Positions 1-20,091 of a stretch of DNA of 20,091 bases are shown here, in pieces. Position numbers and translations under genes: made by a program. The notes below the pieces were generated by a model. The model worked only from the letters and a program-made list of their open reading frames with translations. It did not search any database and was not told where the DNA came from. Each line of letters begins with the position of its first letter. The first letter of the stretch is position 1. This stretch comes from a virus. Its lineage: Duplodnaviria > Heunggongvirae > Uroviricota > Caudoviricetes. Location of the stretch: positions 1 through 20,091 of the IMG/VR virus record IMGVR_UViG_2693429524_000017; one strand, written 5' to 3'.

Positions 1-243
1 ATGGCAGAGATTATTCCCATGACTGAAGAACAGAAATTCCAGTTAGAGATTTACAAGCTGGTCATGAACCAGAACGCAGCCGCAGAGGAAGCATTTTAGT
101 TCATTGGCACTGACGAACTGAAGCTTGAGCTATTCAAAATTCACTTCCAGTCAGGCGGCGCTAATTCAGATATCACGACCCGCACTATCGAAGCGGTGCG
201 TAAATCGAAGGAAGCGTTAGACCTGTTCACCACCGGAGCATAA
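1..243 (+). pseudogene. Small ORF upstream of the terminase genes, about 80 codons in frame 1, interrupted by an in-frame TAG at 97-99; may be truncated at the window edge
   Basis: Frame 1 reads ATG at 1 to TAG at 97-99 (32 codons), then continues open for 47 more codons to TAA at 241-243. The second segment has no in-frame ATG near its start. Confidence 0.3.
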
Positions 244-322
244 ACATGGCAACTCAAGGTTTCGACAACCCATCCAAATTCCGCGATGAATGGGATAAGC
301 AAGCAGAAGGGAAATAATCAAT

Positions 323-811
323 ATGGCAGCACCAAAGGGCAACCGATTTTGGGAGGCCCGCAGTAGTCATGGGCGAAATCCTAAATTCGAATCGCCTGAG
401 GCGCTGTGGGCTGCTTGTTGTGAATACTTCGAGTGGGTAGAAGCTAACCCGCTATGGGAGATGAAGGCGTTCTCGTATCAGGGTGAAGTGATACAAGAAC
501 CTATCGCCAAGATGCGAGCGATGACCATTACAGGCCTCACTCTGTTCATTGATGTGACGCTTGAAACATGGCGCACATATCGCCTGCGAGAAGATTTATC
601 TGAAGTCGTTACGCGAGCAGAGCAGGTCATCTACGACCAGAAATTCTCTGGCGCAGCCGCTGACCTTCTCAACGCTAACATCATCGCCCGTGATTTGGGC
701 CTCAAAGAGCAGTCGCAAGTTGAAGACGTGACACCTGATAAGGGAGATCGCGATAAGCGACGCTCTCGTATCAAGGAGCTATTCAACCGTGGAACTGGAC
801 GCGATTCTTGA
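323..811 (+). CDS. terS: Terminase small subunit (P22 gp3-type), 162 aa
   Basis: ATG at 323 preceded by a GAAGGGA Shine-Dalgarno-like stretch. The translation matches my recollection of P22 gp3 along its whole length, and a P22 pac-like 22-mer lies inside it. Immediately upstream of and overlapping the large terminase gene. Confidence 0.9.
590..611 (+). other. pac: pac-like packaging recognition site inside the small terminase gene (GAAGATTTATCTGAAGTCGTTA)
   Basis: The 22-mer at 590-611 matches the P22 pac sequence as I recall it, and sits at about the same relative position within gene 3. Not verified against a reference. Confidence 0.5.
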
Positions 812-2285
812 TAACCTGAGCGACGAAGAGCAAATCGAGTTGCTCGAGCTACTCGAAGAAGAAGAGAACTACCGGAACACACACCTGCTATATGAATTTA
901 CGCCATACAGCAAACAGCGTGAGTTCATCGACGCCGGGCATGACTATCCAGAGCGATGTTTTATGGCTGGCAACCAGCTTGGTAAGTCATTTACTGGTGC
1001 TGCTGAAGTCGCGTTTCACCTTACCGGGCGTTATCCGGGCACAAAAGGCTATCCTGCTGATGGTAAATATGGCGGTGAGTGGAAAGGTAAGCGTTTCTAT
1101 GAGCCTGTTGTCTTCTGGATTGGTGGCGAGACAAACGAGACTGTAACCAAAACGACTCAACGCATCCTGTGCGGTCGTATCGAAGAGAATGATGAGCCTG
1201 GCTACGGTTCCATACCGAAAGAAGACATCATTAGCTGGAAGAAGTCTCCTTTCTTTCCGAACCTTGTTGATCATCTTCTGGTTAAGCATCACACGGCTGA
1301 TGGCGTTGAAGATGGCATTTCAATCTGCTACTTCAAGCCATACTCGCAAGGCCGTGCTCGCTGGCAGGGTGACACAATCCACGGCGTGTGGTTTGACGAA
1401 GAGCCACCATACAGCATTTATGGCGAAGGTCTTACCCGTACCAACAAATACGGGCAATTCTCAATTCTGACGTTTACCCCGCTGATGGGGATGTCTGACG
1501 TTGTTACCAAGTTCCTGAAGAATCCCAGCAAGTCGCAGAAAGTGGTCAACATGACCATCTATGACGCAGAGCACTACACCGACGAGCAGAAAGAGCAAAT
1601 CATCGCATCCTATCCTGAGCATGAGAGAGAGGCGCGTGCTCGCGGTATTCCAACGATGGGTAGCGGTCGAATCTTCCAGATACCGGAAGAGACGATTAAG
1701 TGTCAGCCGTTCGAGTGTCCTGATCACTTCTACGTCATCAATGCAATGGACTTCGGATGGGATCACCCACAGGCACATATCCAGCTTTGGTGGGATAAAG
1801 ACGAGGACGTGATTTATCTTTCTCGCGTCTGGAAGGCCAAACAGAAGAAGGCGACAGAGGCATGGAGTGCTGTTAAAGCATGGAGCAAAAACACCCCTAC
1901 GGCTTGGCCTCATGACGGGCATCAGCACGAAAAGGGAGGCGGCGCTCAGCTCAAGGAACAATACGCCGACGCTGGGTTCGACATGTTGCCAGATCATGCA
2001 ACATGGCCTGATGGAGGTAATGCGGTCGAACCCGGGATAGCAGAGATACGCGACATGATGCTCGACGGTCGTTTCAAGGTATTTAACACCTGCGAGCCAT
2101 TCTTTGAAGAGTTTCGCCTGTATCACCGCGATGAGAACGGGAGGATCGTCAAGCTAAATGACGACATCCTTTCTGCTGTTCGCTATGGCTACATGATGAG
2201 GCGTTTTGCAATACAGATGCGAGACATCAAAGATCCTAAAGAGATTGATTACTCAAGCTACAACATACCTTGCGGAGTTGGATGA
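789..2285 (+). CDS. terL: Terminase large subunit (P22 gp2-type), 498 aa
   Basis: GTG start at 789 overlapping the end of terS; TGA at 2283-2285 overlaps the portal ATG. Size, position and translation are consistent with P22-family large terminase. Confidence 0.9.
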
Positions 2286-4486
2286 TGGCTGATGATAGAA
2301 AGATGACTGACTGGCATCGCAAGGTGCTGTGCAACTTTGATAATGCCTGGTCAGCAACGCAGGATATGCGTGAGCAGATTATTGAGGCTCAACGTTTCGT
2401 CCGGGTATCCGGCGCACAGTGGGAAGGCAGCACAAACGCTGGTTACTCATTTGATGAAGGAAGGTTTGAGCATTACCCGCGCTTTGAGCTGAATAAGATT
2501 GCCCGTGAATGTGATCGCATCATTGGCGAGTATCGACAGAATCGCATCAGCGTTAAATTCAGGCCGAAGGACGATAAGGCATCGGAAGCGTTAGCCGAAA
2601 AGATGAACGGCAAATTCCGCGCTGACTATCAGGAAACATCCGGTGGCGAAGCGTGTGATAACGCATTTGATGATGCTGTAACGGGCGGATTCGGTTGTTT
2701 CCGCATGTGTGCCGATTACGAAGATGAAATGGATCCGAGTAACGAGCAGCGCCGTATAAGCCTTCTTCCTGTTTACGACCCAGCGACATGCGTCTTCTTC
2801 GATCAGGACAGCAAGCAATATGACCGCTCTGATGCTATGTGGGCTATGGAAATGTTCTCCATGACGCCTAAAGCGTTCGAGGCTGAATACCCTGACTCCA
2901 TCGCGGCAAGTCTTTCTCGTGATGACACTGGTACTCAGTATGACTGGTCAACGCCTGATGCCATCTATGTTGGACGCTACTACGAAGTTCGCATAGAGAA
3001 GGTGAAGCTCACGGCGTGGCGCAATCCTGTCAGCGGAGAAACGGCAATCTATGATGAAGAGCAAATCAAAGATATTGTCGACGAGCTGACCGATGGTGCA
3101 TTCGAACTGATTGGCGAGCGAACGGTGAAGAAGCGCCGCGTTTATTGCGGTCTTCTGTCTGGCGCTGAATGGCTGGAAGAACCGAAGCGTATTCCGGGCG
3201 AACATATTCCTCTCATCCCGGTATATGGGCGTCGCTCATTTGTTGATAATCAGGAGCGAATAGAAGGCCACGCAGCAAAAGCGATGGATGCACAGCGTCT
3301 TGAGAACCTGATGGTTTCCATGATTGCAGATAACGCTACTCAGGCTGGCGGTGATGGCATTCCTGTAGTTGATGTTGACATGATTCCTGGTCCTCTCGCC
3401 AATCATTGGGCGGAGCGCAACAAAAAGCGCCCGGCGTTCCTGCCGATGGTAAGTCTGAAAAACAAAAACGGAGATATTACTGCGCAGGCTCAGGTCAGCA
3501 GTTATACACCTCCGACACAAATGCCTCCTGCTCTTGCCGGGTTATTGCAGTACACCGGAACGGCTATTCAGCAAATTACCGGGGCTTCGCAGCTTGAGAA
3601 CATGCCGAGCAACGTCGCCACCGATACCGTTGATAGCATCTTTAACCGGATGGACACGCAGTCCTATATCTACATGGACAACATGGCTAAATCCATGCGT
3701 CGCGCTGGCGTTGTGTGGCTTTCTATGGCGCGTGAGGTCTATGGCAGTGATACGCCGATGCGTATCGTGAATGAGGACGACAGCGATGACGTGGCGCTGA
3801 TGACTGGTGAAGTGGTTGACCGTCAGACAGGGCAGGTTATCGCGCTTAACGACCTTTCGCAGGGTAACTATGAAGTGACTGTCGATGTCGGTCAGTCGTT
3901 CGCTACTCGCCGTGATGCAACGGTTAAGTCGTTACTTTCCATGCTGGCACTTATCCCACCAGGAACGCCGAAGCACGACCTTGTATCGTCGATGATTCTC
4001 GACAATATGGACGGCGAAGGGATGGACGACCTGAAAGAATACAACCGCAATCAGTTGCTTCTGTCTGGCGTTATCAAGCCGAGAACGCCTGAAGAACAGC
4101 AAATGGTTGAGCAGGCGAAACAACAACAGGCCAGTCAGCCAGATCCGGCTATGGTTGCTGCGCAAGGTCAGCTTCTTGCTGGCCAGGCTGAATTGCAGAA
4201 AGCGCAGAACGAACAGGCAGCCATTCAGGTTAAAGCATTCCAGGCACAGACTGATGCTCAGGTTGCAGCGGCAAATGTTGTGAAAATACTCGCATCTGCC
4301 GATAGTCAGCAGAAATCTGATATCCGCGAGGCTCTGAAACTGCTCGGACAGTTCCAGCAACAGCAAGGAGATAATGCCCGTGCTGATGCAGAGCTTGTCC
4401 TGAAAAGTCAGGCACAGGGCCATGCGCAGCGCATGGACATCAGCAGCATCCTGCAAAAATCAACTCAGCAACAACCACAGCAGTAA
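2285..4486 (+). CDS. Portal protein (P22 gp1-like), about 733 aa
   Basis: Tandem ATGs at 2282 and 2285 overlap the terL stop; the track ORF begins at a TTG at 2270. Length and position fit a portal, with a Q/A-rich helical C-terminus like the P22 portal barrel. Shared motifs include KKRRVY, GEHIPLIPVYG and RMDISSILQ, but the sequence is clearly divergent from P22 gp1 as I recall it. Confidence 0.85.
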   Translation: MADDRKMTDWHRKVLCNFDNAWSATQDMREQIIEAQRFVRVSGAQWEGSTNAGYSFDEGRFEHYPRFELNKIARECDRIIGEYRQNRISVKFRPKDDKASEALAEKMNGKFRADYQETSGGEACDNAFDDAVTGGFGCFRMCADYEDEMDPSNEQRRISLLPVYDPATCVFFDQDSKQYDRSDAMWAMEMFSMTPKAFEAEYPDSIAASLSRDDTGTQYDWSTPDAIYVGRYYEVRIEKVKLTAWRNPVSGETAIYDEEQIKDIVDELTDGAFELIGERTVKKRRVYCGLLSGAEWLEEPKRIPGEHIPLIPVYGRRSFVDNQERIEGHAAKAMDAQRLENLMVSMIADNATQAGGDGIPVVDVDMIPGPLANHWAERNKKRPAFLPMVSLKNKNGDITAQAQVSSYTPPTQMPPALAGLLQYTGTAIQQITGASQLENMPSNVATDTVDSIFNRMDTQSYIYMDNMAKSMRRAGVVWLSMAREVYGSDTPMRIVNEDDSDDVALMTGEVVDRQTGQVIALNDLSQGNYEVTVDVGQSFATRRDATVKSLLSMLALIPPGTPKHDLVSSMILDNMDGEGMDDLKEYNRNQLLLSGVIKPRTPEEQQMVEQAKQQQASQPDPAMVAAQGQLLAGQAELQKAQNEQAAIQVKAFQAQTDAQVAAANVVKILASADSQQKSDIREALKLLGQFQQQQGDNARADAELVLKSQAQGHAQRMDISSILQKSTQQQPQQ

Positions 4487-4576
4487 TTAACCCATAACGT
4501 GCAATGGCTGTCTTTATGAGGCCTGGCACCCTATTGCCTTCCGATGGGCTGAACATCGAGTAAACAGGGGTAACAA

Positions 4577-5470
4577 ATGGACCAGATGGCAGAAAACACA
4601 CCAGAAGTTGAAATCGAAACCGACGCGTCAGAGCAGATTCCTGATGATGTCGAACTGGCTGAAGAAGTCGAAACAGTAGATGGCAGTGAGTCCTCCGGCA
4701 ATGATGCAGAGGAAGCTACTGAAACTGATGACGACGAATCAGAACAGGAATTCTACTTTGGTGACGAAAAGCTGGATTCGCCAACCAGCGAAGATGGCGC
4801 AGAGCATGGACTGGTAAAACACCTGCGCAAGACGATTAAAGAGAAAGACCGCGAGCTGAAAGAGCTGATGCGTCAGTCTCAGAAACCCGTCGAGCAGCAG
4901 CCGGTAATCACTCAACCACCGCGAATGCCAAAACTGGATGATGAGGACATCGGTTTCGATGAAGAAATCTACCAGCAACGCATGGCTAAGTGGGCAGAGG
5001 ATAACGGCAAGTACCAGCAACAGGAGATGGCTCGCAAGCAGAAGGAGCAGGAGCTTCAGGCTGCCTATCAAGAGCGATTATCCAAATATCAGCAACGTGT
5101 TAAGGCTCTCAAAGTTCCTGGCTATCAGGAAGCTGAGCAGGCCGTACTCGAGGAAATCCCAATCGAGACACAAAACGCGATCCTGTTTGAGTCAGAGAAG
5201 CCGGAGATCGTTGTTCTGGCACTCGGTCGCAACGCTGAACTGCGCAAGCAACTGGCAGAAGCTACCAACCCCGTAGCAATTGGTCGTCTGCTGGAACGTA
5301 TCGAATCGAAGGCCAGAATCATGCCAAAAGCAAAAACCACGGCAGCCACAACCCCGACAGTTAAGGGGAGCAACGGCGCAGTAATCAATAACCTCGACAA
5401 ACTGAAAGCCAAGGCGCTGGAAACTGGTGACTGGACGCCGTATTTCGCCGCCAAAAAGGCAAAAAAATAA
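4577..5470 (+). CDS. Scaffolding protein (P22 gp8-like), 297 aa
   Basis: Sits between portal and coat. Very acidic N-terminus, charged coiled-coil-like middle, Lys-rich C-terminus. RBS-like GGGG upstream of ATG at 4577. Confidence 0.8.
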   Translation: MDQMAENTPEVEIETDASEQIPDDVELAEEVETVDGSESSGNDAEEATETDDDESEQEFYFGDEKLDSPTSEDGAEHGLVKHLRKTIKEKDRELKELMRQSQKPVEQQPVITQPPRMPKLDDEDIGFDEEIYQQRMAKWAEDNGKYQQQEMARKQKEQELQAAYQERLSKYQQRVKALKVPGYQEAEQAVLEEIPIETQNAILFESEKPEIVVLALGRNAELRKQLAEATNPVAIGRLLERIESKARIMPKAKTTAATTPTVKGSNGAVINNLDKLKAKALETGDWTPYFAAKKAKK

Positions 5471-5488
5471 CCTATCGGAGCATTAAGC

Positions 5489-6742
5489 ATGGCTAACCAA
5501 TTAGCAAAAGACCTTGAAATCATGTTCGAAAACTACGTTGAAGGCTTTGAGGCCGCCTGCGTAGTTTCCCGTAACGCTAAAAAATTCCGTCCCGGTGATA
5601 CAGCAATGCAGCGAGCAGGTGATGTTCTGTATCGTCCGCAGCATTACCACATGAACATTGAGGAAGGCCTAGACCTCAGCGGCAAAACGCCAACAGCACT
5701 GGTTCAGCGCCTTGTTCCTTCTGTGTTCAAGGAGCCGAAAAACATTCTGTACACTCTGGATGCGCGTGAAATGCGTGACCCGGAACATAAAACTGAAGCT
5801 GGTCGCGCCGCAGGTATGCGCCTTGCTGCACAGATTGACTCTGACCTGATTTCCATGGTTACGCAGCGTGCTACTAACGTGATCACGATGGCTGACTCAA
5901 CCACAGGTTCACAGGGCCGTGATTTGTGGAACTGTGCGGCAGGTATTGATGCCACCATGACGGCGATTGGTGTACCTCAGGGTATCAACCGTCGCTCTTT
6001 CTGGAACCCCTTCAACTACAAAGACCTTGCTGGCGAGCTTAGTCACCGTGCCTATGCTCAGGGCGCAACCCTGACAGCATACGAAAAAGCGCAAATCCCT
6101 CCGGTTGCGTCCTTCGATAGCTACAAGACCGATATTTCTGGTCGTGTTCCGAAGGGTACAGCAACTTCCATTACGCTGGCAGCAGCACCTGCGCACAAGG
6201 TTGAAGCGAAAGATGCTAACGATATGCCAGTGGATAACCGACAGGGGACCATTACGGTATCTGCTGAAGGTTTGCAGGTTGGCGATGCGTTTACCATCGC
6301 AGGGGTGAATTCTGTACACCAGATCACCAAAGATACCACCGGGCAGCCGCAGGTATTCCGCGTTCTGGCAGTAAGCGGAACGACAGTAACTATCTCCCCG
6401 AAAATTCTGCCGCCTGACAACGCGGATGTCGCCAGCCGACCATATGCAAACGTTGATGCTAACGCGGCAAATGGTGCAGCAATTACCATTCTCAACAAAA
6501 ATGCCGCACCGGCTAACCTATTCTGGGCTGATGGTTCTGTTGAGCTGATGTACGGCAAACTGGCGTTCCCGACTGGTCAGGGTCCACAGGTAATGACAGC
6601 AACCACCGAGCAGGGCGCTACGCTGATCATGTCTTACGCCTTCGACCACATCAAAGGCGTAACCACTGCTCGTTTCACCACTCTGTATGGTTGCTCTGTA
6701 CTTGTTCCTGAATATACGGGCATCGTTATTGCCGGGCAGTAA
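5489..6742 (+). CDS. Major capsid (coat) protein (P22 gp5-like), 417 aa
   Basis: Position directly after scaffold, length, GGAG RBS, and a strong intrinsic terminator immediately downstream as expected for a highly expressed coat gene. Divergent from P22 gp5 itself. Confidence 0.85.
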   Translation: MANQLAKDLEIMFENYVEGFEAACVVSRNAKKFRPGDTAMQRAGDVLYRPQHYHMNIEEGLDLSGKTPTALVQRLVPSVFKEPKNILYTLDAREMRDPEHKTEAGRAAGMRLAAQIDSDLISMVTQRATNVITMADSTTGSQGRDLWNCAAGIDATMTAIGVPQGINRRSFWNPFNYKDLAGELSHRAYAQGATLTAYEKAQIPPVASFDSYKTDISGRVPKGTATSITLAAAPAHKVEAKDANDMPVDNRQGTITVSAEGLQVGDAFTIAGVNSVHQITKDTTGQPQVFRVLAVSGTTVTISPKILPPDNADVASRPYANVDANAANGAAITILNKNAAPANLFWADGSVELMYGKLAFPTGQGPQVMTATTEQGATLIMSYAFDHIKGVTTARFTTLYGCSVLVPEYTGIVIAGQ

Positions 6743-6749
6743 TTTTGGT

Positions 6750-6772
6750 GGGGCTTCGGCCCCATTTTTATT
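6750..6772 (+). terminator. Rho-independent terminator after the coat gene
   Basis: GGGGC-TTCG-GCCCC hairpin (6750-6763) followed by ATTTTTATT. Confidence 0.7.
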
Positions 6773-6783
6773 GGGAGAAGACA

Positions 6784-6972
6784 ATGGCACGAACAATGCT
6801 CTATAAGCCTGGCAACATGATCACCTGTGGTCAGTTTGCTGTCGATTACATCATTGTTGATGACGAAGAAGTTAAATCTCACCTGAAAAAAGGCTGGGTA
6901 AAAACTCCTGAAGAAACCGCAACGAAGCATAAAGTGGCTAAGGCGGAAGAAGATGGCGAAAACGAAGGGTGA
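6784..6972 (+). CDS. Small hypothetical protein between coat and gp4, about 62 aa
   Basis: ATG at 6784 preceded by GGGAGAAG RBS. The 3' end overlaps the gp4 start by 20 nt in another frame. I recall a small ORF at this position in P22 but cannot confirm it. Confidence 0.5.
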   Translation: MARTMLYKPGNMITCGQFAVDYIIVDDEEVKSHLKKGWVKTPEETATKHKVAKAEEDGENEG

Positions 6973-7414
6973 TCTCGTTCTTAAGGCTTTACGAAAAGCC
7001 GGGCTGTATTCCAATGCCACGTTGACAGATGCCGACCCTCAGGCAATTGAAGATTCCATTAATGACCTCGAAGACATGATGGCAGCATGGCAGGCGAAAG
7101 GTATCGAGCTTGGGTATCAGTTTGCTGATACAGAAAACGGCATCATGCCGTTGCCTGACGATGATTCAGGTATCCCTGCATGGGCAAATGATGGCGTCGC
7201 TTTGAAACTCGCTGTGCAAGTGTGCATGGATAACGTCATTCAGCCGTCAGACGCTCTCCTTACCGCTGCTGACAGTGCATATCAAACAATCTGTATCGCT
7301 TTAACCAAAATACCACCACTTGAGCGGCGAAATGACATGCCTCGCGGTAGTGGTAACAAAAGCGCGTTTACGTGGAATCGGTTTTACATCGAGAAAGATG
7401 ATCCGAGTACGTGA
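6953..7414 (+). CDS. Head completion / tail adaptor protein (P22 gp4-like), 153 aa
   Basis: N-terminus MAKTKGDLVLKALRKAGL resembles P22 gp4; conserved position upstream of gp10. Confidence 0.8.
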   Translation: MAKTKGDLVLKALRKAGLYSNATLTDADPQAIEDSINDLEDMMAAWQAKGIELGYQFADTENGIMPLPDDDSGIPAWANDGVALKLAVQVCMDNVIQPSDALLTAADSAYQTICIALTKIPPLERRNDMPRGSGNKSAFTWNRFYIEKDDPST

Positions 7415-7423
7415 GGTGAATAA

Positions 7424-8842
7424 ATGCCGATTCAGCAACTTCCGCTTATGAAAGGTGTCGGCAAAGACTTTCGAAACGCCGACTATATCGACTATCTGCC
7501 AGTGAATATGTTGGCTACACCCAAAGAAATCCTGAACAGCAGCGGATATCTTCGCTCATTCCCGGGCATTGCCAAACGTTCTGATGTGAACGGAGTATCG
7601 CGAGGCGTCGAGTACAACATGGCGCAGAATGCTGTTTATCGCGTGTGTGGTGGCAAGCTGTACAAAGGAGAAAGTGAAGTCGGTGACGTCGCCGGAAGTG
7701 GTCGTGTATCAATGGCGCATGGTCGGACATCACAGGCGGTAGGTGTTAATGGTCAACTGGTCGAGTATCGCTATGATGGCACTGTTAAAACCGTCTCAAA
7801 CTGGCCTACAGACAGCGGTTTTACGCAGTATGAGTTAGGTTCAGTTCGCGACATTACGCGCTTACGTGGGCGTTATGCGTGGTCAAAAGACGGTACTGAT
7901 TCATGGTTTATCACTGACCTTGAAGACGAATCGCACCCTGACCGCTACAGCGCACAATATCGTGCAGAATCGCAGCCTGACGGCATCATCGGCATAGGTA
8001 CATGGCGAGACTTTATCGTCTGCTTTGGTTCATCGACAATTGAATATTTCTCCCTGACTGGTGCAACCACCGTTGGTGCCGCTTTGTATGTCGCACAGCC
8101 ATCGCTGATGGTGCAGAAAGGTATTGCCGGGACTTACTGCAAAACGCCATTCGCTGATTCTTATGCGTTCATCAGCAATCCGGCAACAGGTGCGCCGTCT
8201 GTATACATCATCGGCTCCGGTCAGGTATCACCAATCGCCAGCGCGAGCATTGAGAAAATCCTCCGCTCCTACACTGCTGATGAACTGGCTGATGGTGTGA
8301 TGGAATCGCTGCGGTTTGATGCTCATGAGTTGCTGATTATCCACCTTCCTCGCCATGCTCTCGTGTACGACGCATCTTCAAGCGCAAATGGTCCGCAATG
8401 GTGTGTGCTGAAAACAGGCCTGTATGACGATGTGTACCGCGCTATCGACTTCATTTACGAAGGCAATCAGATAACGTGCGGCGATAAGCTGGAATCCGTG
8501 ACCGGGAAACTGCAGTTCGATATCAGCAGCCAGTATGGTCTTCAACAGGAACACCTGCTGTTTACTCCACTCTTCAAAGCAGATAACGCCAGATGCTTTG
8601 ATCTGGAGGTGGAATCATCGACGGGTGTTGCGCAGTACGCCGACCGCCTTTTTCTCTCTGCAACCACTGACGGCATCAATTACGGTCGTGAGCAGATGAT
8701 TGAGCAGAATGAACCGTTCGTTTACGACAAACGCGTTTTGTGGAAGAAAGTAGGGCGCATCAGGAAAAACATTGGTTTCAAATTGCGCGTTATCACGAAG
8801 TCACCTGTCACTCTGTCAGGCTGCCAGATAAGGATTGAGTAA
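7424..8842 (+). CDS. Head completion / tail hub protein (P22 gp10-like), 472 aa
   Basis: Same length as P22 gp10 as I recall it; GAGGTGA RBS; stop overlaps the next ATG (TAATG). Confidence 0.85.
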
Positions 8843-9690
8843 TGGCTGATTCGAATCTCAATACACCTGTTATTGTTCAGGCTACACGGCTCGACACATC
8901 AGTCCTTCCACGCAATATCTTCTCGCAGTCGTATCTGCTTTACGTTATCGCACAGGGCACTGATGTTGGTAACGTGGCTAACAAGGCCAACGAGGCCGGA
9001 CAGGGCGCTTATGATGCACAGGTTAGGAACGATGAGCAGGATGTGATTCTCGCTGACCATGAGCAGCGAATTTCTGCTGCGGAAGCAACGCTTGTTAATC
9101 ATGAGGAGCGAATCAGCCAGGCAGAATCAACTCTTCAGGAACATGAAACACGAATAGCTCAGAATGAAAGCGATATTGCGTCGCTTGATACCAGAGTTCA
9201 GTCGCTCGAATCGCAGGTTTCAGACCATGAAACGCGCATCGATGCTCTGGAGTATGCCACTACTCGCAAGAAGTCAGAGGTTGTTTACTCTGGCGTATCT
9301 GTAACCATCCCGACAGCGCCGACCAACCTTGTTAGCCTGCTGAAAACGCTCACGCCGTCATCCGGCACGTTGGCACCATTCTTCGACACCGTTAACAACA
9401 AGATGGTTGTGTTCAACGAGAACAAAACCTTGTTCTTCAAGCTGTCGATCGTCGGGACGTGGCCCAGCGGAACCGCCAACAGGTCAATGCAGCTAACCTT
9501 TTCCGGCTCTGTTCCTGACACACTGGTAAGCAGTCGCAACTCGGCGACAACAACCGACAACATCCTGTTAGCTACGTTCTTCAGCGTGGATAAAGACGGC
9601 TTTCTTGCCACAAATGGCAGTACGTTAACCATTCAGTCGAATGGTGCGGCGTTTACTGCCACAACCATCAAGATAATCGCGGAGCAGTGA
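8842..9690 (+). CDS. Tail needle (P22 gp26-like) with a C-terminal knob domain, 282 aa
   Basis: N-terminus matches the gp26 type. The centre has heptad-type repeats (HEQRIS, HEERIS, HETRIA, HETRID) typical of the trimeric coiled coil. The C-terminal ~140 aa is a Ser/Thr/Asn-rich extension, as in Sf6/HK620-type knobbed needles, which P22 lacks. Confidence 0.85.
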
Positions 9691-10145
9691 TGATTACATT
9701 CAAACCAACGCGAAACATCGACCTGATAGAAGCAGTCGGAAATCACCCTGACATTATCGCCGGGAGCAACAACGGTGATGGATACTACTACAAACCTGAA
9801 TGCCGTTACTTTGAGGTGAACGTGCACGGTCAGTTTGGCGGCATTGTTTACTATCAGGAGATTCAGCCGCTGACATTCGATTGCCACGCCATGTACCTGC
9901 CAGAGATTCGCGGCTTCAGCAAGGAAATCGGGCTGGAGTTCTGGCGATACATTCTGACTAACACCACTGTTCAGTGTGTCACATCGTTCGCTGCACGCAA
10001 ATTCCGCCACGGGCAGATGTACTGCGCAATGATTGGCCTTAATCGTGTAGGAACCATCAAGAAATACTTCAAAGGCGTGGATGACGTGACGTTTTACAGC
10101 GCAACACGCGAAGAACTAATCGACTTCCTGAATCACGGGAGATAG
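9690..10145 (+). CDS. gp14-like virion assembly / ejection-associated protein, about 151 aa
   Basis: Conserved position between needle and gp7; ATG at 9690 overlaps the needle TGA (track starts at a GTG at 9687). Confidence 0.7.
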   Translation: MITFKPTRNIDLIEAVGNHPDIIAGSNNGDGYYYKPECRYFEVNVHGQFGGIVYYQEIQPLTFDCHAMYLPEIRGFSKEIGLEFWRYILTNTTVQCVTSFAARKFRHGQMYCAMIGLNRVGTIKKYFKGVDDVTFYSATREELIDFLNHGR

Positions 10146-10147
10146 CC

Positions 10148-10837
10148 ATGTTATATGCATTTAAGCTGGGCAGAAAACTGCGCGGCGAGGAACCTTGGTG
10201 CCCTGAAAAAGGCGGGAAAGGTGGAGCCGATAAAAGCGCAAAGTATGCAGCAGAAACTCAGAAGTATGCCGCAGACCTGCAAAATCAGCAGTTCAACACC
10301 ATCATGAACAACCTGAAGCCGTTTACTCCTCTGGCTGGGAAGTATGTCGGCAGCCTTGAGAACTTATCGTCTCTGGAGGGGCAAGGTCAGGCGCTTAACC
10401 AGTATTACAACTCTCAGCAGTACAAAGACCTTGCTGGTCAGGCTCGCTATCAGAGTCTGGCGGCAGCGGAAGCAACAGGTGGATTGGGTTCCACTGCAAC
10501 CAGTAATCAGTTAGCAACAATCGCACCAACGCTTGGTCAGCAATGGCTATCTGGTCAGATGAACAACTACCAGAATCTGGCAAATATTGGGCTTGGTGCT
10601 CTGCAAGGTCAGGCAAACGCCGGGCAGACATATGCCAACAACATGAGTCAGATTTCGCAGCAAAGTGCGGCTCTTGCAGCGGCAAATGCCAACAGACCAT
10701 CAGCAATGCAATCTGCTATTGGCGGAGGTGCGTCTGGTGCGATTGCCGGTGCAGGTCTTGCCAGCCTTTTGGGAACATCAACGCCTTGGGGCGCTGGCAT
10801 TGGTGCTGGTATCGGATTGCTTGGCTCGTTGTTTTAA
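10148..10837 (+). CDS. Ejection (internal virion) protein gp7-like, 229 aa
   Basis: Same length as P22 gp7 as I recall it; GGGAG RBS; Gln/Ala/Gly-rich with a glycine-rich hydrophobic C-terminus. Confidence 0.8.
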   Translation: MLYAFKLGRKLRGEEPWCPEKGGKGGADKSAKYAAETQKYAADLQNQQFNTIMNNLKPFTPLAGKYVGSLENLSSLEGQGQALNQYYNSQQYKDLAGQARYQSLAAAEATGGLGSTATSNQLATIAPTLGQQWLSGQMNNYQNLANIGLGALQGQANAGQTYANNMSQISQQSAALAAANANRPSAMQSAIGGGASGAIAGAGLASLLGTSTPWGAGIGAGIGLLGSLF

Positions 10838-10846
10838 GGGGTAATC

Positions 10847-12253
10847 ATGGCTACTTGGCAAGGAACAAACGGCGGATTGTTGGCTGGTATCGGCGGCGTC
10901 AACTCAAACGCTCCGAGCGTAAATGACATCGGCAATACGCTTCAGCTTATCAGGCAGAACAATGATATTGAGCGTTCAGGCGCTAACAATGTTGGGCTGA
11001 CTGCTTTGCAAGGCCTTTCAGGTATTGCGGGGGTGTTTCAGCAGGAAAAGCAGGCTCAGCGGCAGAAAGAATTTCAGCAGGCATACGCTAATGCTTATGC
11101 GTCTGGTGATCGCGGTGCTTTGCGTCAGTTGGCTACTCAATATCCAGACCAGATTGAATCCGTTCGTAAAGGCATGGGATTCATTGATGAAGACCAGCGT
11201 AATTCTATCGGCACATTAGCGGCTGGCGCACGCCTTGCGTCATCGTCTCCAGAAGCAATGCAATCATGGCTGCAAAACAACGCCAAGGAACTGACTCGCG
11301 TCGGTGTTGACCCTAACAGCGTTGCTCAGATGTATCAGCAAAACCCTTCAGGATTTGGTGAGTTTGTTGATCACCTTGGGATGGCTGCTCTCGGTCCGAT
11401 TGATTACTTCAATGTTCAGGACAAGATGGCTGGTCGTGAAATTGACCGAGGCAGGCTGGCAGAGACAATCCGCAGCAATCAGGCTGGTGAAGCACTTCAG
11501 GCGAGAGGGCAAAACCTTTCCTATCAGTCAGCAATGACTGGGCACAATATCGCAGCACAACGCTTGGCTCTGGATCAGCAAGAGTTCGGGTTTAAGATGC
11601 AGCAAGCGCAGGAAAAGGCTCAGCAGTTGATTAGTGAAGCACCTAAGCTGTCAGTAAACATGGAAAAAGCCATCGAGACGGCTGTAAACAATGCCACAGC
11701 ATCATCAAACTCAGCCAATTCTATGAGTGCGCTTGCTCAACAGTTCAGAGCAGAAAAACCAACGACAGGTTTGTTCGGTAACGCACAGAACATGTTCGCA
11801 AAACTTACCGGAAGCGATACGACATTGCGTGATTTGCGCATTCGCCAAAATGCCCTTGTTAACAGTCAGGTTCTTAAATTCCTACCTCCCGGCCCCGCAA
11901 CGGATAAAGACGTTGAGATCGTTCGTCAGGGTGCACCAACTGACATGGATAACCCTGAGACGGTCGCAAGATGGCTTGATGCTATGGCAAACCTTGAGCG
12001 ACGAAACGCGCAGTTTAATGAGTTTAAAGCCGAGTGGATGAGCGCGAATGGCAACCCTGGACAATCGCGTAATGGCGGTCAGATATTGGGGTTGGATGTT
12101 AAAAAAGGTGAATCATTGGGGAGTGCCGTTAAGCGGTATATGTCAATGAATACTGACGCAGCGCCAGCACAAGATTCGACACCTTCAGGTGAACCACGGA
12201 ATCAGGTTGGATCATATACCTCAAAATCAGGCATTCAATTTACGGTGGAATGA
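10847..12253 (+). CDS. Ejection protein gp20-like, 468 aa
   Basis: Position and size match P22 gp20 (recalled as ~471 aa); AAGGGG RBS. Confidence 0.8.
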   Translation: MATWQGTNGGLLAGIGGVNSNAPSVNDIGNTLQLIRQNNDIERSGANNVGLTALQGLSGIAGVFQQEKQAQRQKEFQQAYANAYASGDRGALRQLATQYPDQIESVRKGMGFIDEDQRNSIGTLAAGARLASSSPEAMQSWLQNNAKELTRVGVDPNSVAQMYQQNPSGFGEFVDHLGMAALGPIDYFNVQDKMAGREIDRGRLAETIRSNQAGEALQARGQNLSYQSAMTGHNIAAQRLALDQQEFGFKMQQAQEKAQQLISEAPKLSVNMEKAIETAVNNATASSNSANSMSALAQQFRAEKPTTGLFGNAQNMFAKLTGSDTTLRDLRIRQNALVNSQVLKFLPPGPATDKDVEIVRQGAPTDMDNPETVARWLDAMANLERRNAQFNEFKAEWMSANGNPGQSRNGGQILGLDVKKGESLGSAVKRYMSMNTDAAPAQDSTPSGEPRNQVGSYTSKSGIQFTVE

Positions 12254-14857: not shown

Positions 14858-14918
14858 ATTAAATGACATTTGACATAGTTGGATACTTAGCTGCGGCTAT
14901 CAAGATGGAGGTATGTTT

Positions 14919-15362
14919 ATGCTCACTTGTTTTGATGTCGCCGACTACTTCTTGGCGCATTGCGATGAAGAAAGTGGCGACATTATCTCTAACCTAAAAA
15001 TTCAGAAGTTGACGTATTATGCCCAAGGGTTTTCTCTGGTTCTTCTGGGTAAGCCGCTATTTAATGAGAAAATTGAAGCCTGGATGCATGGGCCAGTAGT
15101 TCCTGAATTGTATCGTAAATATAGGGACTGTGGTAACGGCGCTTTACCTGCGCCAGAAAACTTTGACGCTAAAAAATTCAGTGAAGATGAAATTGAATTG
15201 CTGGATGAGGTGTATAAAGTTTATGGTCAGTTTTCTGCCTGGAAACTGCGCAATATGACTCACGAAGAGCAGCCATGGAAAGATGCTTACATTGAGGGTG
15301 CGGTTAGCCAAGAAATCACGCTTGATTCTATGAAAGGTTTTTTCAAAACGTTAATTAACTGA
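14919..15362 (+). CDS. Panacea (DUF4065, COG3600 GepA/SocA-like) domain protein; putative antitoxin or immunity component, about 147 aa
   Basis: Translation contains NLKIQKLTYYAQGFSLVLLGKPLFNEKIEAWMHGPVVPELYRKY, which I recognise as the Panacea core pattern. GGAGG at 14907-14911 favours the ATG at 14919 over the track start at 14913. Stop is 5 nt before the next ORF. Confidence 0.6.
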   Translation: MLTCFDVADYFLAHCDEESGDIISNLKIQKLTYYAQGFSLVLLGKPLFNEKIEAWMHGPVVPELYRKYRDCGNGALPAPENFDAKKFSEDEIELLDEVYKVYGQFSAWKLRNMTHEEQPWKDAYIEGAVSQEITLDSMKGFFKTLIN

Positions 15363-15367
15363 CGTGT

Positions 15368-15790
15368 ATGTCTAGAGTTAAGGGAAGAATAAAACAGAGG
15401 GATAAAGAGAGCTCTGCTACTGTTGGCCTCTCTATCCATCACGAATCTCATGATGTAGACAAAAGTCCGCCTGTATTTTCTCTTAGATACCTACAAAAGG
15501 GGTATTGCCTAGATTGCTGCCAAAAGCATGAAAAGGCAGCATTTGCAGATAGGCTGTTCAGGTTAAGTCAGATGTCATGGGATGAGATACGAAAATCTGA
15601 TAAACACGGGCTTGGGACGGAAAAAATTGCCAGAAACGCGATAAAGGCTCCGATTCCTAAGCATGTTACTCAAGATGTGGATTTCATTGCGTTCAGATTT
15701 TGCTCTAAGGCACCTATGGTTGGTTATAAGATAGGAGCCACTTTTTATGTCTTATGGCTCGACAGGGAGTTCAAGCTATACAAGCACTAA
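15368..15790 (+). CDS. Hypothetical basic protein, 140 aa; candidate toxin/effector partner of the upstream Panacea-domain protein
   Basis: ATG 5 nt after the upstream stop with no independent Shine-Dalgarno, so probably translationally coupled. K/R/H-rich, with a C-terminal segment VDFIAFRFCSKAPMVGYKIGATFYVLWLDREFKLYKH. I cannot assign a family. Followed directly by an intrinsic terminator. Confidence 0.55.
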   Translation: MSRVKGRIKQRDKESSATVGLSIHHESHDVDKSPPVFSLRYLQKGYCLDCCQKHEKAAFADRLFRLSQMSWDEIRKSDKHGLGTEKIARNAIKAPIPKHVTQDVDFIAFRFCSKAPMVGYKIGATFYVLWLDREFKLYKH

Positions 15791-16364: not shown

Positions 16365-16548
16365 GGTGGGATGCTAGGTCTCTATCGTTAAAATCAAGGC
16401 TGCTAATCATTTCATTGTAAATGGCGTTTTTATCTTCCATTGGCAGTCTTGAGTAAACCAGGCACAGAGCATATTTCAGGGAGTTTAGCTCCTTCTCTAG
16501 CTCTTCCTTGCTTGACGTTGTTGACTTAATAAACTGTTTTTTGTTCAT
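16339..16548 (-). CDS. Small hypothetical protein co-transcribed downstream of mnt, 69 aa
   Basis: ATG overlaps the mnt stop (ATGA on the minus strand), so probably translationally coupled to mnt. No family recognised. Confidence 0.5.
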   Translation of the reverse strand: MNKKQFIKSTTSSKEELEKELNSLKYALCLVYSRLPMEDKNAIYNEMISSLDFNDRDLASHLNSFRVPE

Positions 16549-16796
16549 TTTTCATCCTTACCATACATGGTCTTTAGCGCCTCAACATCGTGTTCAAGAT
16601 CTATCAATCGTGATGCTATAGTTGCAAGGTCTAGTGCTTGAATGTGTTTATTTTTTTCGGTCCACGCTTCAAGTGCCGCGACCATCTCAGCATTTAATGA
16701 ACGAGAATTAGCCTCAGCCAGTTCAATAAGACGTTCCTTTATCTCTACAGGAAGCCTCAGATTCACTTGAGGGTTTTTGTACTTACGATCAGACAT
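16545..16796 (-). CDS. mnt: Mnt-like ribbon-helix-helix repressor, 83 aa
   Basis: N-terminal RHH motif NLRLPVEIKERLIELAEANSRSLNAEMVAAL aligns with my recollection of P22 Mnt; same length; transcribed divergently from arc/ant as in P22 immI. Confidence 0.8.
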   Translation of the reverse strand: MSDRKYKNPQVNLRLPVEIKERLIELAEANSRSLNAEMVAALEAWTEKNKHIQALDLATIASRLIDLEHDVEALKTMYGKDEK

Positions 16797-16824
16797 CGGC
16801 GCATCCTGAATAATTTTTTACCAC

Positions 16825-16853
16825 AGGATATGTAGGTATCTATTGACTATCAA
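16825..16853 (-). promoter_or_regulatory. Pmnt-like promoter (minus strand: -35 TTGATA, 17-bp spacer, -10 TATCCT)
   Basis: The -35 is the reverse complement of 16848-16853 and the -10 of 16825-16830. An AGGA Shine-Dalgarno lies 7 nt before the mnt ATG. Overlaps Pant back-to-back. Confidence 0.5.
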
Positions 16854-16871
16854 TGCGTACCTAAATACTAT
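16843..16871 (+). promoter_or_regulatory. Pant-like promoter (-35 TTGACT, 17-bp spacer, -10 TACTAT) driving arc, ORF67 and ant
   Basis: TTGACT at 16843-16848 and TACTAT at 16866-16871; GGAGGA RBS at 16893-16898 before the arc ATG. Confidence 0.6.
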
Positions 16872-16889
16872 GTATGCGTACCACATACA
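16871..16889. promoter_or_regulatory. Operator-like palindrome TGTATG-N7-CATACA over the Pant -10/start region (candidate Mnt- or Arc-type operator)
   Basis: Inverted 6-bp arms at 16871-16876 and 16884-16889. In P22 the Mnt operator overlaps the Pant start point. Which repressor binds here is not determined. Confidence 0.4.
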
Positions 16890-16901
16890 ACGGAGGATGC
16901 A

Positions 16902-17042
16902 ATGAAGGTAAAAACACTGCGTATGCCAGAGAAGCTAGAAAAAATTCTTGAAGAAAAAGCAAAGGAAGAGTGTCGCTCATTCAGCGCAGAAGTAATTAAA
17001 CGGGTGATGGACAGCCTGAAGAGAGAGGGGATAACTGTATGA
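16902..17042 (+). CDS. arc: Arc-like ribbon-helix-helix repressor, 46 aa (absent from the ORF track because it is under 60 aa)
   Basis: ATG at 16902 with GGAGGA upstream. Translation MKVKTLRMPEKLEKILEEKAKEECRSFSAEVIKRVMDSLKREGITV aligns with P22 Arc as I recall it, notably RSFSAEVIKRVMDSLKREG against RSVNSEIYQRVMESFKKEG. Confidence 0.8.
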   Translation: MKVKTLRMPEKLEKILEEKAKEECRSFSAEVIKRVMDSLKREGITV

Positions 17043-17242
17043 GTAAAGAATGTTGTTTCTGCGGCATTAGCGAATCAGACGCTGATCAAACATACATTTA
17101 CTCTAAAGAAACAGGTCGGATGCTGTGTAGTGACTGCGTGTTGGACATCATAAGATACAAGCATCTTGGATGTTCTGCCAGCATTAGCAATATAGGTGAA
17201 GTATATGAAGGGAAAGATATAACTGATAGAGCAGAAAGTTGA
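17039..17242 (+). CDS. Small Cys-rich (zinc-ribbon-like) hypothetical protein, 67 aa, translationally coupled to arc
   Basis: ATG overlaps the arc TGA (ATGA). Cys cluster CCFCG...CSDC...C. Sits between arc and ant, where I recall P22 having only an intercistronic region. Confidence 0.55.
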   Translation: MSKECCFCGISESDADQTYIYSKETGRMLCSDCVLDIIRYKHLGCSASISNIGEVYEGKDITDRAES

Positions 17243-17340
17243 AGCCCCAACTGCTGGAACAGTCAGGGCTTCGGTATCGTAAAACCACACATAGGAATTA
17301 ACGACATGAAAAGTATAGCAACAGCAGTATCTACTATCAA
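17236..17340 (-). ncRNA. sar: Candidate sar-like antisense RNA locus: minus-strand promoter inside the ant 5' end, transcript running antisense across the ant RBS to a hairpin at 17241-17272
   Basis: Minus-strand -35 TTGATA (reverse complement of 17335-17340), 17-bp spacer, -10 TATACT (reverse complement of 17312-17317), placing the start near the ant ATG. An extended hairpin GAAGCCC..ACTG-CTGGAA-CAGT..GGGCTTC lies at 17241-17272. The predicted length of about 65-70 nt is similar to the P22 sar RNA as I recall it. The span includes the promoter. Confidence 0.45.
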
Positions 17341-18172
17341 TGTACCATTCCACGGCGCAGAGCTTTATGTTGTCAATCACAACGGCGAACCGTATACCCC
17401 AATGAAACCTATCGTTGAAGGCATGGGTATGGATTGGGCTTCACAGTTTACGAAAATGAAGCAGCGGTTTAAAACCTCCATTGTGAAAATCACAATGCAG
17501 CTTCCTGGTGATGAACAACGCCGTGAGATTATTTGTTTGGCACTTCGCAAACTTGCAGGTTGGCTGCAAACCATTAGCCCTAACAAAGTCCGCCCTGAAA
17601 TCCGCGACAAGGTAATCCAGTATCAGGAAGAGTGTGACGATGTGCTCTACGAATACTGGACTAAAGGTCATGTAGTTAACCCACGCAAAGCTAAAAAGGC
17701 GTTGCCGGGTAAAATTACCACTGAACAGCAGGAAGCCATTAAACAACTCGTCATGAGTCGCGGTCAGTCTCTGCCAAAAGAAAAACAGGCGAAGGCGATG
17801 ATCACCATGTGGTCGTCACTGAAATCTCATTTTGGGTGTTCATACAAAGAAATCAGCGATGAGCAGTTTACCGAAGCTCTGTCACTTGCAGCTCGTATTC
17901 CACTTGAAGGCGAGTTCATTGGCAAGTCGAAACATAATGAGATGAGTTGTTTTGATTGGAGGATGAATGTTCATAACCTGAACTCGGCGTGCATTCATCT
18001 TGATGCCATGTACAGAATATGGAGAGACGAAATGGAACCCGCTTTGCGATTGCTTGGCTCTCCGGTTGCGACCAGATTTTGCGGAAGAATTGCAGATTGC
18101 TATTCCGTAACTGCAAGCGTTAAGAAAAGTCTGGAGAATGCCGCAGGGCTGAAAGGCTTACAACCATTTTAA
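17306..18172 (+). CDS. ant: Antirepressor Ant (P22 Ant-like), 288 aa
   Basis: N-terminal segment YTPMKPIVEGMGMDWASQFTKMKQRF...ICLALRKLAGWL...YQEECDDVLYEYWTKG is typical of phage antirepressor N-domains; located after arc as in P22 immI. Confidence 0.8.
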   Translation: MKSIATAVSTINVPFHGAELYVVNHNGEPYTPMKPIVEGMGMDWASQFTKMKQRFKTSIVKITMQLPGDEQRREIICLALRKLAGWLQTISPNKVRPEIRDKVIQYQEECDDVLYEYWTKGHVVNPRKAKKALPGKITTEQQEAIKQLVMSRGQSLPKEKQAKAMITMWSSLKSHFGCSYKEISDEQFTEALSLAARIPLEGEFIGKSKHNEMSCFDWRMNVHNLNSACIHLDAMYRIWRDEMEPALRLLGSPVATRFCGRIADCYSVTASVKKSLENAAGLKGLQPF

Positions 18173-18294: not shown

Positions 18295-20091
18295 ATGACA
18301 GACATTACAGCCAATGTTGTAGTGAGCATGCCTTCGCAACTCTTCACTATGGCGCGTTCTTTTAAAGCGGTTGCCAATGGCAAAATTTATATTGGTAAAA
18401 TTGACACTGACCCTGTAAATCCTGAAAACCAGATTCAGGTTTATGTGGAGAACGAAGATGGTTCTCACGTCCCTGTTTCGCAACCAATCACCATTAACGC
18501 TGCTGGTTATCCGGTATATAACGGACAGATTGCCAAGTTCGTAACTGTACAGAATCACTCCATGGCTGTTTATGATGCATATGGTGCACAACAATTCTAT
18601 TATCCTGATCTACTTAAATATTCTCCAGACCAGTTAAGGGCTGAGCTTTCTGGCCCTGATGGCGCATCTCTGGTTGGTTATGGAGGCACAACCGTAAAGA
18701 TTGAGCTGGAGATCTTGAAAGCTACACATGATTCATTAATTGATAAAACAGGATTTAACGCTATTGGCCGCTTTCTCAATCTTTCAGAGCTTCGCTCCTG
18801 TGTTCCAGAGGAGGCAGGGCAGATTGTATACGTAGCATCAGCAGCTAGCACTACACATGCTGAAAACCACCTTGGTGGCGGCTTTTTCGAGTCTGTTGAT
18901 AACATTCAGGCGTGGGCTGATGATGGTGGAATTGTAATCAAGCCAGAAACTGGAACGATGGTATGGAGACGAATTAATTTTACCACTTACGACATGCAAT
19001 TTTGGGGGGTGAAACCTGACGGAGTCACAGATAACGCAACAGCTATAACTCTTGCAACTAACTTTGCCCGCTCAAACAAATGCATTCTAGAGGCTCCTGC
19101 TGGAAACATAAATACATCAAAAACAATCCCAATTTATGACAATATGGGAATTAGAGGACAGGGAAAGGCTGAAGCGACAGTTTTTTATAAAACAACAAAT
19201 GACAAAATAGATCTCACAAAAAATGGAGAAGTAATTCTTCAGGTGGATGCATTATGTGCTTTTATACCAAAACAATGGGATCTAACAGATAACTCAATGA
19301 GTTCATTTTGTGTTAACGGTAGAGTTGAAAACTGCATGTTTAGAAGGCTTGGCTTAACACAAGAAAATGTAGATTCTTATAGAAATTATTACGGACTGTT
19401 TTTAGGAAAATCAGCAGCACCAGTTATCAGACAGTCAATTTTTGAATGTGCTTATATCGGATGCTTCTCTTATGCGCCGTTCTCTGGCGTAATGGAAATG
19501 GTCGGTTTCCCACAATATCCAGGGAAAGGATATGCTGGAGTTTTATTTGAAGATTTTAGGGATGGTCAAATAAAAGTAATAGGCACTTCTATGGATATGC
19601 GCCTTGTTCAGGTTAACGGTTACCAGTTGTCATTTAGAATGTCAGGAATGCAATATACCACCATGACCAATTGTACTGCTGAAAACTGCACGCCAATGGA
19701 TGGGGAGTCAATTTGCTATGCATTTGATTTTGTAAATCCGTATTGCATTGTCATGAATACTTGTGCAACAGAATTTGTTAAGGGTGGGCAACTTCGTGTT
19801 AGCGTTCAGGGAAACCCATCATTCAGACCATCTATTATTGTCAATGGCTTTCTGCCAATTGATCAACAAAGCCCGGTAGTGCAAACACCTATAATAGATA
19901 TTGATAATGGTGGCGTAGTTGAAATGAGTGTCATATTAAATGGTGGAGATTGGGCTATAAATCCATCTGCTACAAATTTAGCCGTACCAAGAGCAAGCGG
20001 AAATGGGTTGAAAGCAAGGTTAATAGGTGTAAACGGGTCGCCTGTTTCGATCTGGAGCGTGTCTCCTGGCGCAGATGTGAAGGAGTTCTAA
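18295..20091 (+). CDS. Tailspike protein (P22 gp9-family N-terminal head-binding domain fused to a divergent receptor-binding domain), 598 aa
   Basis: N-terminus [50 protein letters not shown] matches the conserved P22/Sf6/HK620 particle-binding domain. The remainder is a different, AT-richer domain. GGAG RBS; the TAA is the last codon of the window. Confidence 0.85.

Follow-up and report, generated by a model that had tools for sequence, protein, structure and literature searches.

An interrupted reading frame upstream of terS

The window, that is, the whole stretch of 20,091 nucleotides that was analysed (IMG/VR record IMGVR_UViG_2693429524_000017), opens with a reading frame that is interrupted once. 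An ATG at position 1, a TAG at 97-99 and a TAA at 241-243 all lie in frame 1, and translation of positions 1-243 gives MAEIIPMTEEQKFQLEIYKLVMNQNAAAEEAF, a stop, FIGTDELKLELFKIHFQSGGANSDITTRTIEAVRKSKEALDLFTTGA and a second stop. This bears out the split frame described in the initial annotation, as well as its statement that the distal segment has no start codon of its own. Indeed, no canonical start (ATG, GTG or TTG) is found in frame downstream of the TAG over codons 34-65; the first one past it, a GTG at 196, yields just 15 codons, and the earlier distal candidates are weak non-canonical codons alone (ATT at 103 and CTG at 118). The features at this end of the window are listed below.

1..243, + strand: DUF2560 / P22 orf80 / hkbM homologue of 80 codons with an internal amber, a probable pseudogene (Pfam PF10834, CUS-3 identity)
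1..99, + strand: translatable ORF for a 32-aa N-terminal fragment (ORF list, AlphaFold model, 67 public contigs)
97..99, + strand: TAG (amber) at codon 33, probably an ancestral CAG (Gln) changed by a C-to-T transition at base 97 (alignment with CUS-3 and Sf6)
100..243, + strand: distal 47 codons and original TAA, in frame, with no start codon (no difference from CUS-3)
246..317, + strand: putative 23-codon ORF in the variable orf80-terS spacer (ORF list)
323..811, + strand: intact terS, P22 gp3-type small terminase (Pfam PF16677 GP3_package, E 3.5e-33; length as in annotated relatives)

The start of the frame was settled with two relatives for which upstream DNA is available, E. coli Z1323CEC0019 and IMG/VR UViG_2703719355. 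In both, a GGAG lies 7-10 nt 5′ of the ATG and an in-frame TAA five codons 5′ of it. As these relatives are identical to the window here, the orf80 ORF begins at base 1 of the window, and the upstream extension past the window edge that the initial annotation had left possible is not seen. The length of the open run is by itself not above chance: a run of 48 open codons is not rare, so ORF length is uninformative and homology decides. The placement of this ORF upstream of terS in a P22-like genome was also correct. The terS start lies 79 nt past the orf80 stop, and terS is followed on its 3′ side by terL, portal, scaffold, coat and the rest of a P22-type morphogenetic module.

Homology to the DUF2560 family

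With the stop masked, the 243-nt frame matches Pfam PF10834 over the complete model (positions 1-72 of 72, residues 5-76, E 7.6e-43) with 145 bits against a curated cut-off of 25 bits, and the first 32 amino acids alone match model positions 1-28 (50.5 bits). PHROGs places the protein in phrog_571, labelled as unknown function. In DNA searches, 107 phage records and 903 of 5,426 complete E. coli genomes contained the homologous 243-bp gene. Where it is annotated, it is a single gene directly 5′ of the packaging genes, as with CUS-3 hkbM, Sf6 gene 67 and P22 orf80. The hkbM genes of HK620 and CUS-3 and Sf6 gene 67 (NP_958241.1) belong to the same family as the gene in the window (PF10834, phrog_571) but are intact. 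CUS-3 hkbM (ABQ88403.1) is identical to window positions 1-243 except at base 97. P22 orf80 (NP_059625.1, P22gp71) encodes the same 80-residue protein as the window, if the stop is read as Gln, except for K70R; it too lies in the late operon 5′ of gene 3 (terS), but its ORF is intact, with Gln at codon 33.

The position of the window copy is typical of the family: it lies on the late-operon strand, between the lysis/rha region and terS, and holin, lysozyme and Rz/Rha genes are found upstream of the identical allele in relatives. What it lacks is an uninterrupted ORF of about 80 codons, and its TAG at codon 33 marks it as a DUF2560 pseudogene, not a functional member of the family. Because the relatives annotate one 80-codon gene and one Pfam domain covers both halves, the two segments are best read, by homology, as one DUF2560 (PF10834) gene.

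We compared 91 copies of this gene from IMG/VR, GTDB genomes and annotated records. Their 81 distinct DNA alleles encode essentially one protein: of the variable changes, 54 are synonymous and 4 nonsynonymous, a ratio that is biased upward because the copies were picked by protein identity. This pattern points to intact orf80 being maintained as a coding sequence under purifying selection.

Neither Pfam, PHROGs nor a literature search gave anything informative on the function of DUF2560. A sequence search of the PDB gave a best match at E 0.14, and a Foldseek search of the PDB with the AlphaFold model gave a best E of 1.4. Against BFVD, the sole significant Foldseek match was another uncharacterised phage protein.

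The mutation at codon 33

CUS-3 and the window are 99.6% identical over window positions 1-250, the sole difference being base 97 (C in CUS-3, T in the window). No nucleotide differs from CUS-3 across positions 100-243. Codon 33 is also CAG in the Sf6 alignment, and among the 91 copies it is CAG in 48, CAA in 41 and TAG in 2. All 89 intact copies thus have Gln at this codon (90 of 90 once P22 is added). More distant members of the family, some just about 60% identical (Shimwellia, Serratia), have Q, A, S or G at position 33 and in no case a stop. A stop that lies a single substitution from the sense codon of the relatives, in a frame that otherwise retains its homology, is the picture of a nonsense pseudogene, and from these alignments the TAG is evidently a C-to-T nonsense mutation of CAG (Gln33).

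The initial annotation had raised a nonsense-inactivated accessory gene as one of its readings and had proposed an alignment of positions 97-99 with P22-like relatives as the check. The sense codons found there support that reading. A TAG shared across the relatives, which would have spoken against it, is not what we observed: a stop at codon 33 recurs merely as a rare minority, in approximately 0.2-0.3% of copies in complete E. coli genomes.

By eye, the intact relatives have an 8-bp inverted repeat that spans the mutated base (TTCAGTTC at 95-102 and GAACTGAA at 115-122), and the C-to-T change at 97 converts a C:G pair of its stem into T:G. The idea of a mutational hot spot at C97 was considered and dropped, as there is no Dcm site and positions 70-150 do not fold better than shuffled sequences.

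Occurrence of the stop allele

The same allele is present in several other assemblies. E. coli Z1323CEC0019 is 100% identical to window positions 1-663 (663 nt), TAG included, and its copy is annotated in RefSeq by PGAP as a pseudogene, "DUF2560 family protein, internal stop" (WHU41_RS09920; NZ_CP148401.1, 2015294-2015536). IMG/VR UViG_2703719355, which is 99.2% identical to window positions 1-9065, also has the TAG, and E. coli A28 has it in both copies of its prophage, in two places. In Z1323CEC0019, the prophage that carries the allele is heavily decayed: IS1203 interrupts terS after 342 nt and no structural genes are left, whereas the window keeps its full packaging, head and tail module. 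This strain has two P22-like prophages, the decayed one at 2012294-2018623 of NZ_CP148401.1 and an intact one at 2486872-2514434; the latter has an uninterrupted orf80 and shares about 99% identity with window positions 317-10861. From these alignments, the window seems to be either a relative of the two that escaped the deletion or a recombinant between them.

The exact 32-aa product is encoded on 67 public contigs. The ten contexts listed for it have differing upstream genes and different terminase types (GP3_package with Terminase_6, Terminase_3 and Sf6_terminase), and they represent ten different intragenic haplotypes, of which seven have TAG and three TAA. A C at position 105 is present in two of the TAA alleles; among intact copies, 105C is found solely alongside 99A and hence with CAA (11 of 11). 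The codon-33 stop would thus have arisen at least twice, because the 105C TAA alleles point to an independent C-to-T change on a CAA background. The remaining haplotype diversity can be explained by recombination, which, judging from the reticulate haplotypes, is evidently rampant in orf80. Most stop-bearing copies show no further decay 3′ of the stop.

The allele is nevertheless rare. A megablast search with a 30-mer query, which matches only if the T is present (a 61-mer cannot tell TAG from other single mismatches), detected the TAG allele in 2 of the 903 orf80-bearing complete E. coli genomes and in none of 50,697 phage records. The exact TAG 22-mer had no match in the GTDB representative genomes.

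Other truncating alleles are also on record, as expected for a dispensable prophage gene. By number of contigs, these are S51* (42), E39* (37), E64* (21), E43* (16) and Q50* (8), so that Q33* is the commonest of the nonsense products counted; some records of truncated products are partials at contig ends. Several frameshift forms of orf80 are found in the databases, one of them with 63 cluster members. The intact 80-aa protein exists as two variants, each on at least 1000 contigs.

Product of the truncated gene and downstream genes

The AlphaFold model of a full-length member with 96% identity (pLDDT 80.9) has four predicted helices, at residues 9-20, 25-35, 39-51 and 58-78. A stop at codon 33 leaves the first helix and most of the second, and on this model we infer that the 32-aa fragment is non-functional or unstable.

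All genes downstream of orf80 have open frames and normal lengths. P22-like phages depend on a Q-type antiterminator for late transcription, and relatives carry annotated Q-family genes upstream. Since transcription would be Q-antiterminated, by analogy with lambda Q and P22 gp23, and the downstream genes have their own ribosome-binding sites, the nonsense mutation is probably not polar on them. In P22, orf80 is reported in the literature to be non-essential for lytic growth and lysogeny, and a P22 delta(orf25-orf80) prophage still gives viable phage (PMC11016777). Phages bearing the stop allele are thus presumably viable.

A probable inactivation of a dispensable gene

The explanation that we consider highly probable is that an orf80-type gene was inactivated by a single C-to-T change, which turned Gln33 into an amber codon, and that this is an ordinary, tolerated loss-of-function allele. 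The gene, which lies in the late operon of a P22-like phage (Lederbergvirus) between the lysis/rha region and terS, is predicted to encode an accessory protein that is small and all-helical. The change at base 97 would turn CAG into TAG, and translation from the ATG at position 1 would end after 32 residues, or about one and a half of the four predicted helices. The remaining 47 codons would then go untranslated, leaving a young pseudogene. The mutation is probably tolerated because orf80, as reported for P22, is dispensable both for lytic growth and for lysogeny, and a polymerase antiterminated by Q, together with ribosome-binding sites belonging to the downstream genes themselves, would make it non-polar. 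The comparisons described above establish the identity of the gene, its ancestral codon and its true start, and they show that the allele is real and heritable and that the genes that follow are intact. Both the family and the type of defect are known, and the defect is already flagged by public annotation in an identical sequence.

Nevertheless, some observations count against a purely incidental loss. Q33* is the most frequent of the nonsense products counted (67 contigs vs 42, 37, 21, 16 and 8), and it is found in at least ten intragenic haplotypes and with several terminase modules, a spread that is wider than a one-off neutral mutation would suggest. One could imagine that there is positive selection for orf80 inactivation in some hosts, where the full-length protein might be costly in the lysogen or trigger a defence, and that Q33* spreads by recombination. 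The inferred repeat origin of the codon-33 stop, with the 105C TAA alleles on the CAA-105C haplotype, would fit such a scenario, as would the occurrence of Q33* in at least ten prophage contexts and the many further truncating alleles of the same 80-codon gene. In addition, the codons downstream of the stop are mostly undecayed, as expected if the alleles are young or recurrent. We nevertheless regard selection for loss as unlikely. Only 2 of the 903 complete E. coli genomes with orf80 have the allele, whereas each of the two intact variants is on at least 1000 contigs, and the nearly synonymous-only variation indicates that the protein is normally maintained. The eightfold gap between Q33* (67) and Q50* (8), which belong to the same CAG-to-TAG mutational class, argues for sampling or clonal effects over a site-specific mechanism, and does not look like general selection for loss. 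Recurrent C-to-T changes at any CAG or CAA are also expected, given the hundreds of thousands of E. coli and Salmonella genomes that have been sequenced, and a literature search found no defence system that senses Orf80.

A related idea is that truncation at Q33 itself is recurrently selected, either as an escape from a host defence or cost, or because the 32-residue peptide is active. If true, a selected truncation would explain the repeat origin, the many P22-like backgrounds and the pristine distal codons. Recurrence alone backs this reading and is no proof of selection, and we consider it quite improbable.

It is also very unlikely that the TAG is suppressed or leaky, so that some full-length protein is made. 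The attraction of this proposal is that the 47 codons past the stop have kept their frame and match intact relatives exactly. Gln-inserting suppressors restore CAG-to-TAG ambers, and a host supE-type tRNA would thus return exactly the wild-type residue. However, the relatives have a sense codon at this position, so it is not a conserved recoding site; conservation of the stop among relatives, which is expected of programmed readthrough, is not observed (2 of 903 genomes and no phage record). No tRNA gene was found in the window. Positions 70-150, which include the region past the stop, have no significant RNA structure (minimum free energy z-score of 0.51 vs shuffles), and Rfam has no match near the stop, at 1-400. 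The base that follows the stop is U, and termination at UAGU is efficient in E. coli. The gp14 homologue at 9687-10145 also terminates with TAG, which therefore probably works as an ordinary stop in this genome. Finally, the same truncation exists in TAA versions, which an amber suppressor cannot read, and programmed readthrough at codon 33 is therefore unlikely.

The initial annotation had also raised the possibility of a sequencing error, in which case the true base 97 would be C and the gene intact. Over positions 1-250 the window does differ from CUS-3 by a single base, but the same T is present in independent assemblies (Z1323CEC0019, A28 in two places, UViG_2703719355 and NCBI/ENA/Logan contigs), and the change is a substitution, not a homopolymer-length error, so we consider an error at this base extremely unlikely. 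Least probable of all, to a point where we dismiss it, is its suggestion of two unrelated short frames (a gene at 1-99 and another inside 100-243) or of non-coding DNA, for which the stop codon is the sole support, whereas a single domain of 72 positions spans both halves, all annotated relatives have a single 80-codon, 243-bp gene, no canonical distal start precedes codon 66 and variation is almost purely synonymous over the whole 243 nt.

The preferred reading, a tolerated nonsense mutation in orf80, has a practical consequence, as the correct annotation for positions 1-243 is a DUF2560/orf80 pseudogene with an internal stop and neither two ORFs nor an error. It also lends support from natural populations to laboratory work in which P22 orf80 proved dispensable. 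From a biological perspective, this is a very conserved gene that collects many independent knock-outs in prophages, and whether loss of the gene is neutral or favoured might hint at the role of the protein.

The orf80-terS spacer and other features of the window

Just past the orf80 stop, from about base 244-251 on, similarity to relatives is lost completely. The position of window 244-322 is taken by at least four sequences that are unrelated to one another, namely, the CUS-3 terS start, hkbN/orf59c, a 129-aa ORF and the 79-nt spacer of the window. In CUS-3, terS starts directly after the hkbM stop, with its ATG at the position of window 246, whereas terS of the window starts at 323. Sf6 and P22 carry hkbN/orf59c at the spacer position; in P22, orf59c lies between orf80 and gene 3, and the 79-nt spacer found there in the window, with its 23-codon ORF, is unrelated to it. 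We considered whether this ORF, at 246-317, is a remnant of hkbN/orf59c, and rejected this, as the alignment shows no relationship. This pattern of conservation and divergence suggests that orf80 is a conserved linker at which modules recombine. In one 105-aa database protein, intact Orf80 is fused in frame to the 23-codon ORF (window 241-317), apparently through a 1-nt insertion at the orf80 stop.

The other features that we noted lie toward the 3′ end of the window.

14913-15362, + strand: ORF with a SocA/Panacea antitoxin domain (Pfam PF13274, E 2.2e-24)
15368-15790, + strand: 140-aa ORF with no Pfam match, 6 nt past the SocA/Panacea ORF
16545-16796, - strand: Arc/Mnt-like repressor (immI region)
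17237-17304, - strand: sar antisense RNA (Rfam RF00262, 80.9 bits)
17306-18172, + strand: antirepressor with a P22_AR_N domain
18295-20091: tailspike ORF with a Head_binding domain

Positions 16545-18172 form a typical P22 immI region. The SocA/Panacea ORF and its neighbour lie between the ejection-protein genes and this region, and, judging from the domain content, the pair at 14913-15790 could be a PanA-type toxin-antitoxin system or a defence moron. Finally, the window begins with the orf80 ATG at base 1 and ends with the tailspike TAA at 20089-20091, which suggests cuts at gene boundaries and not at random points.
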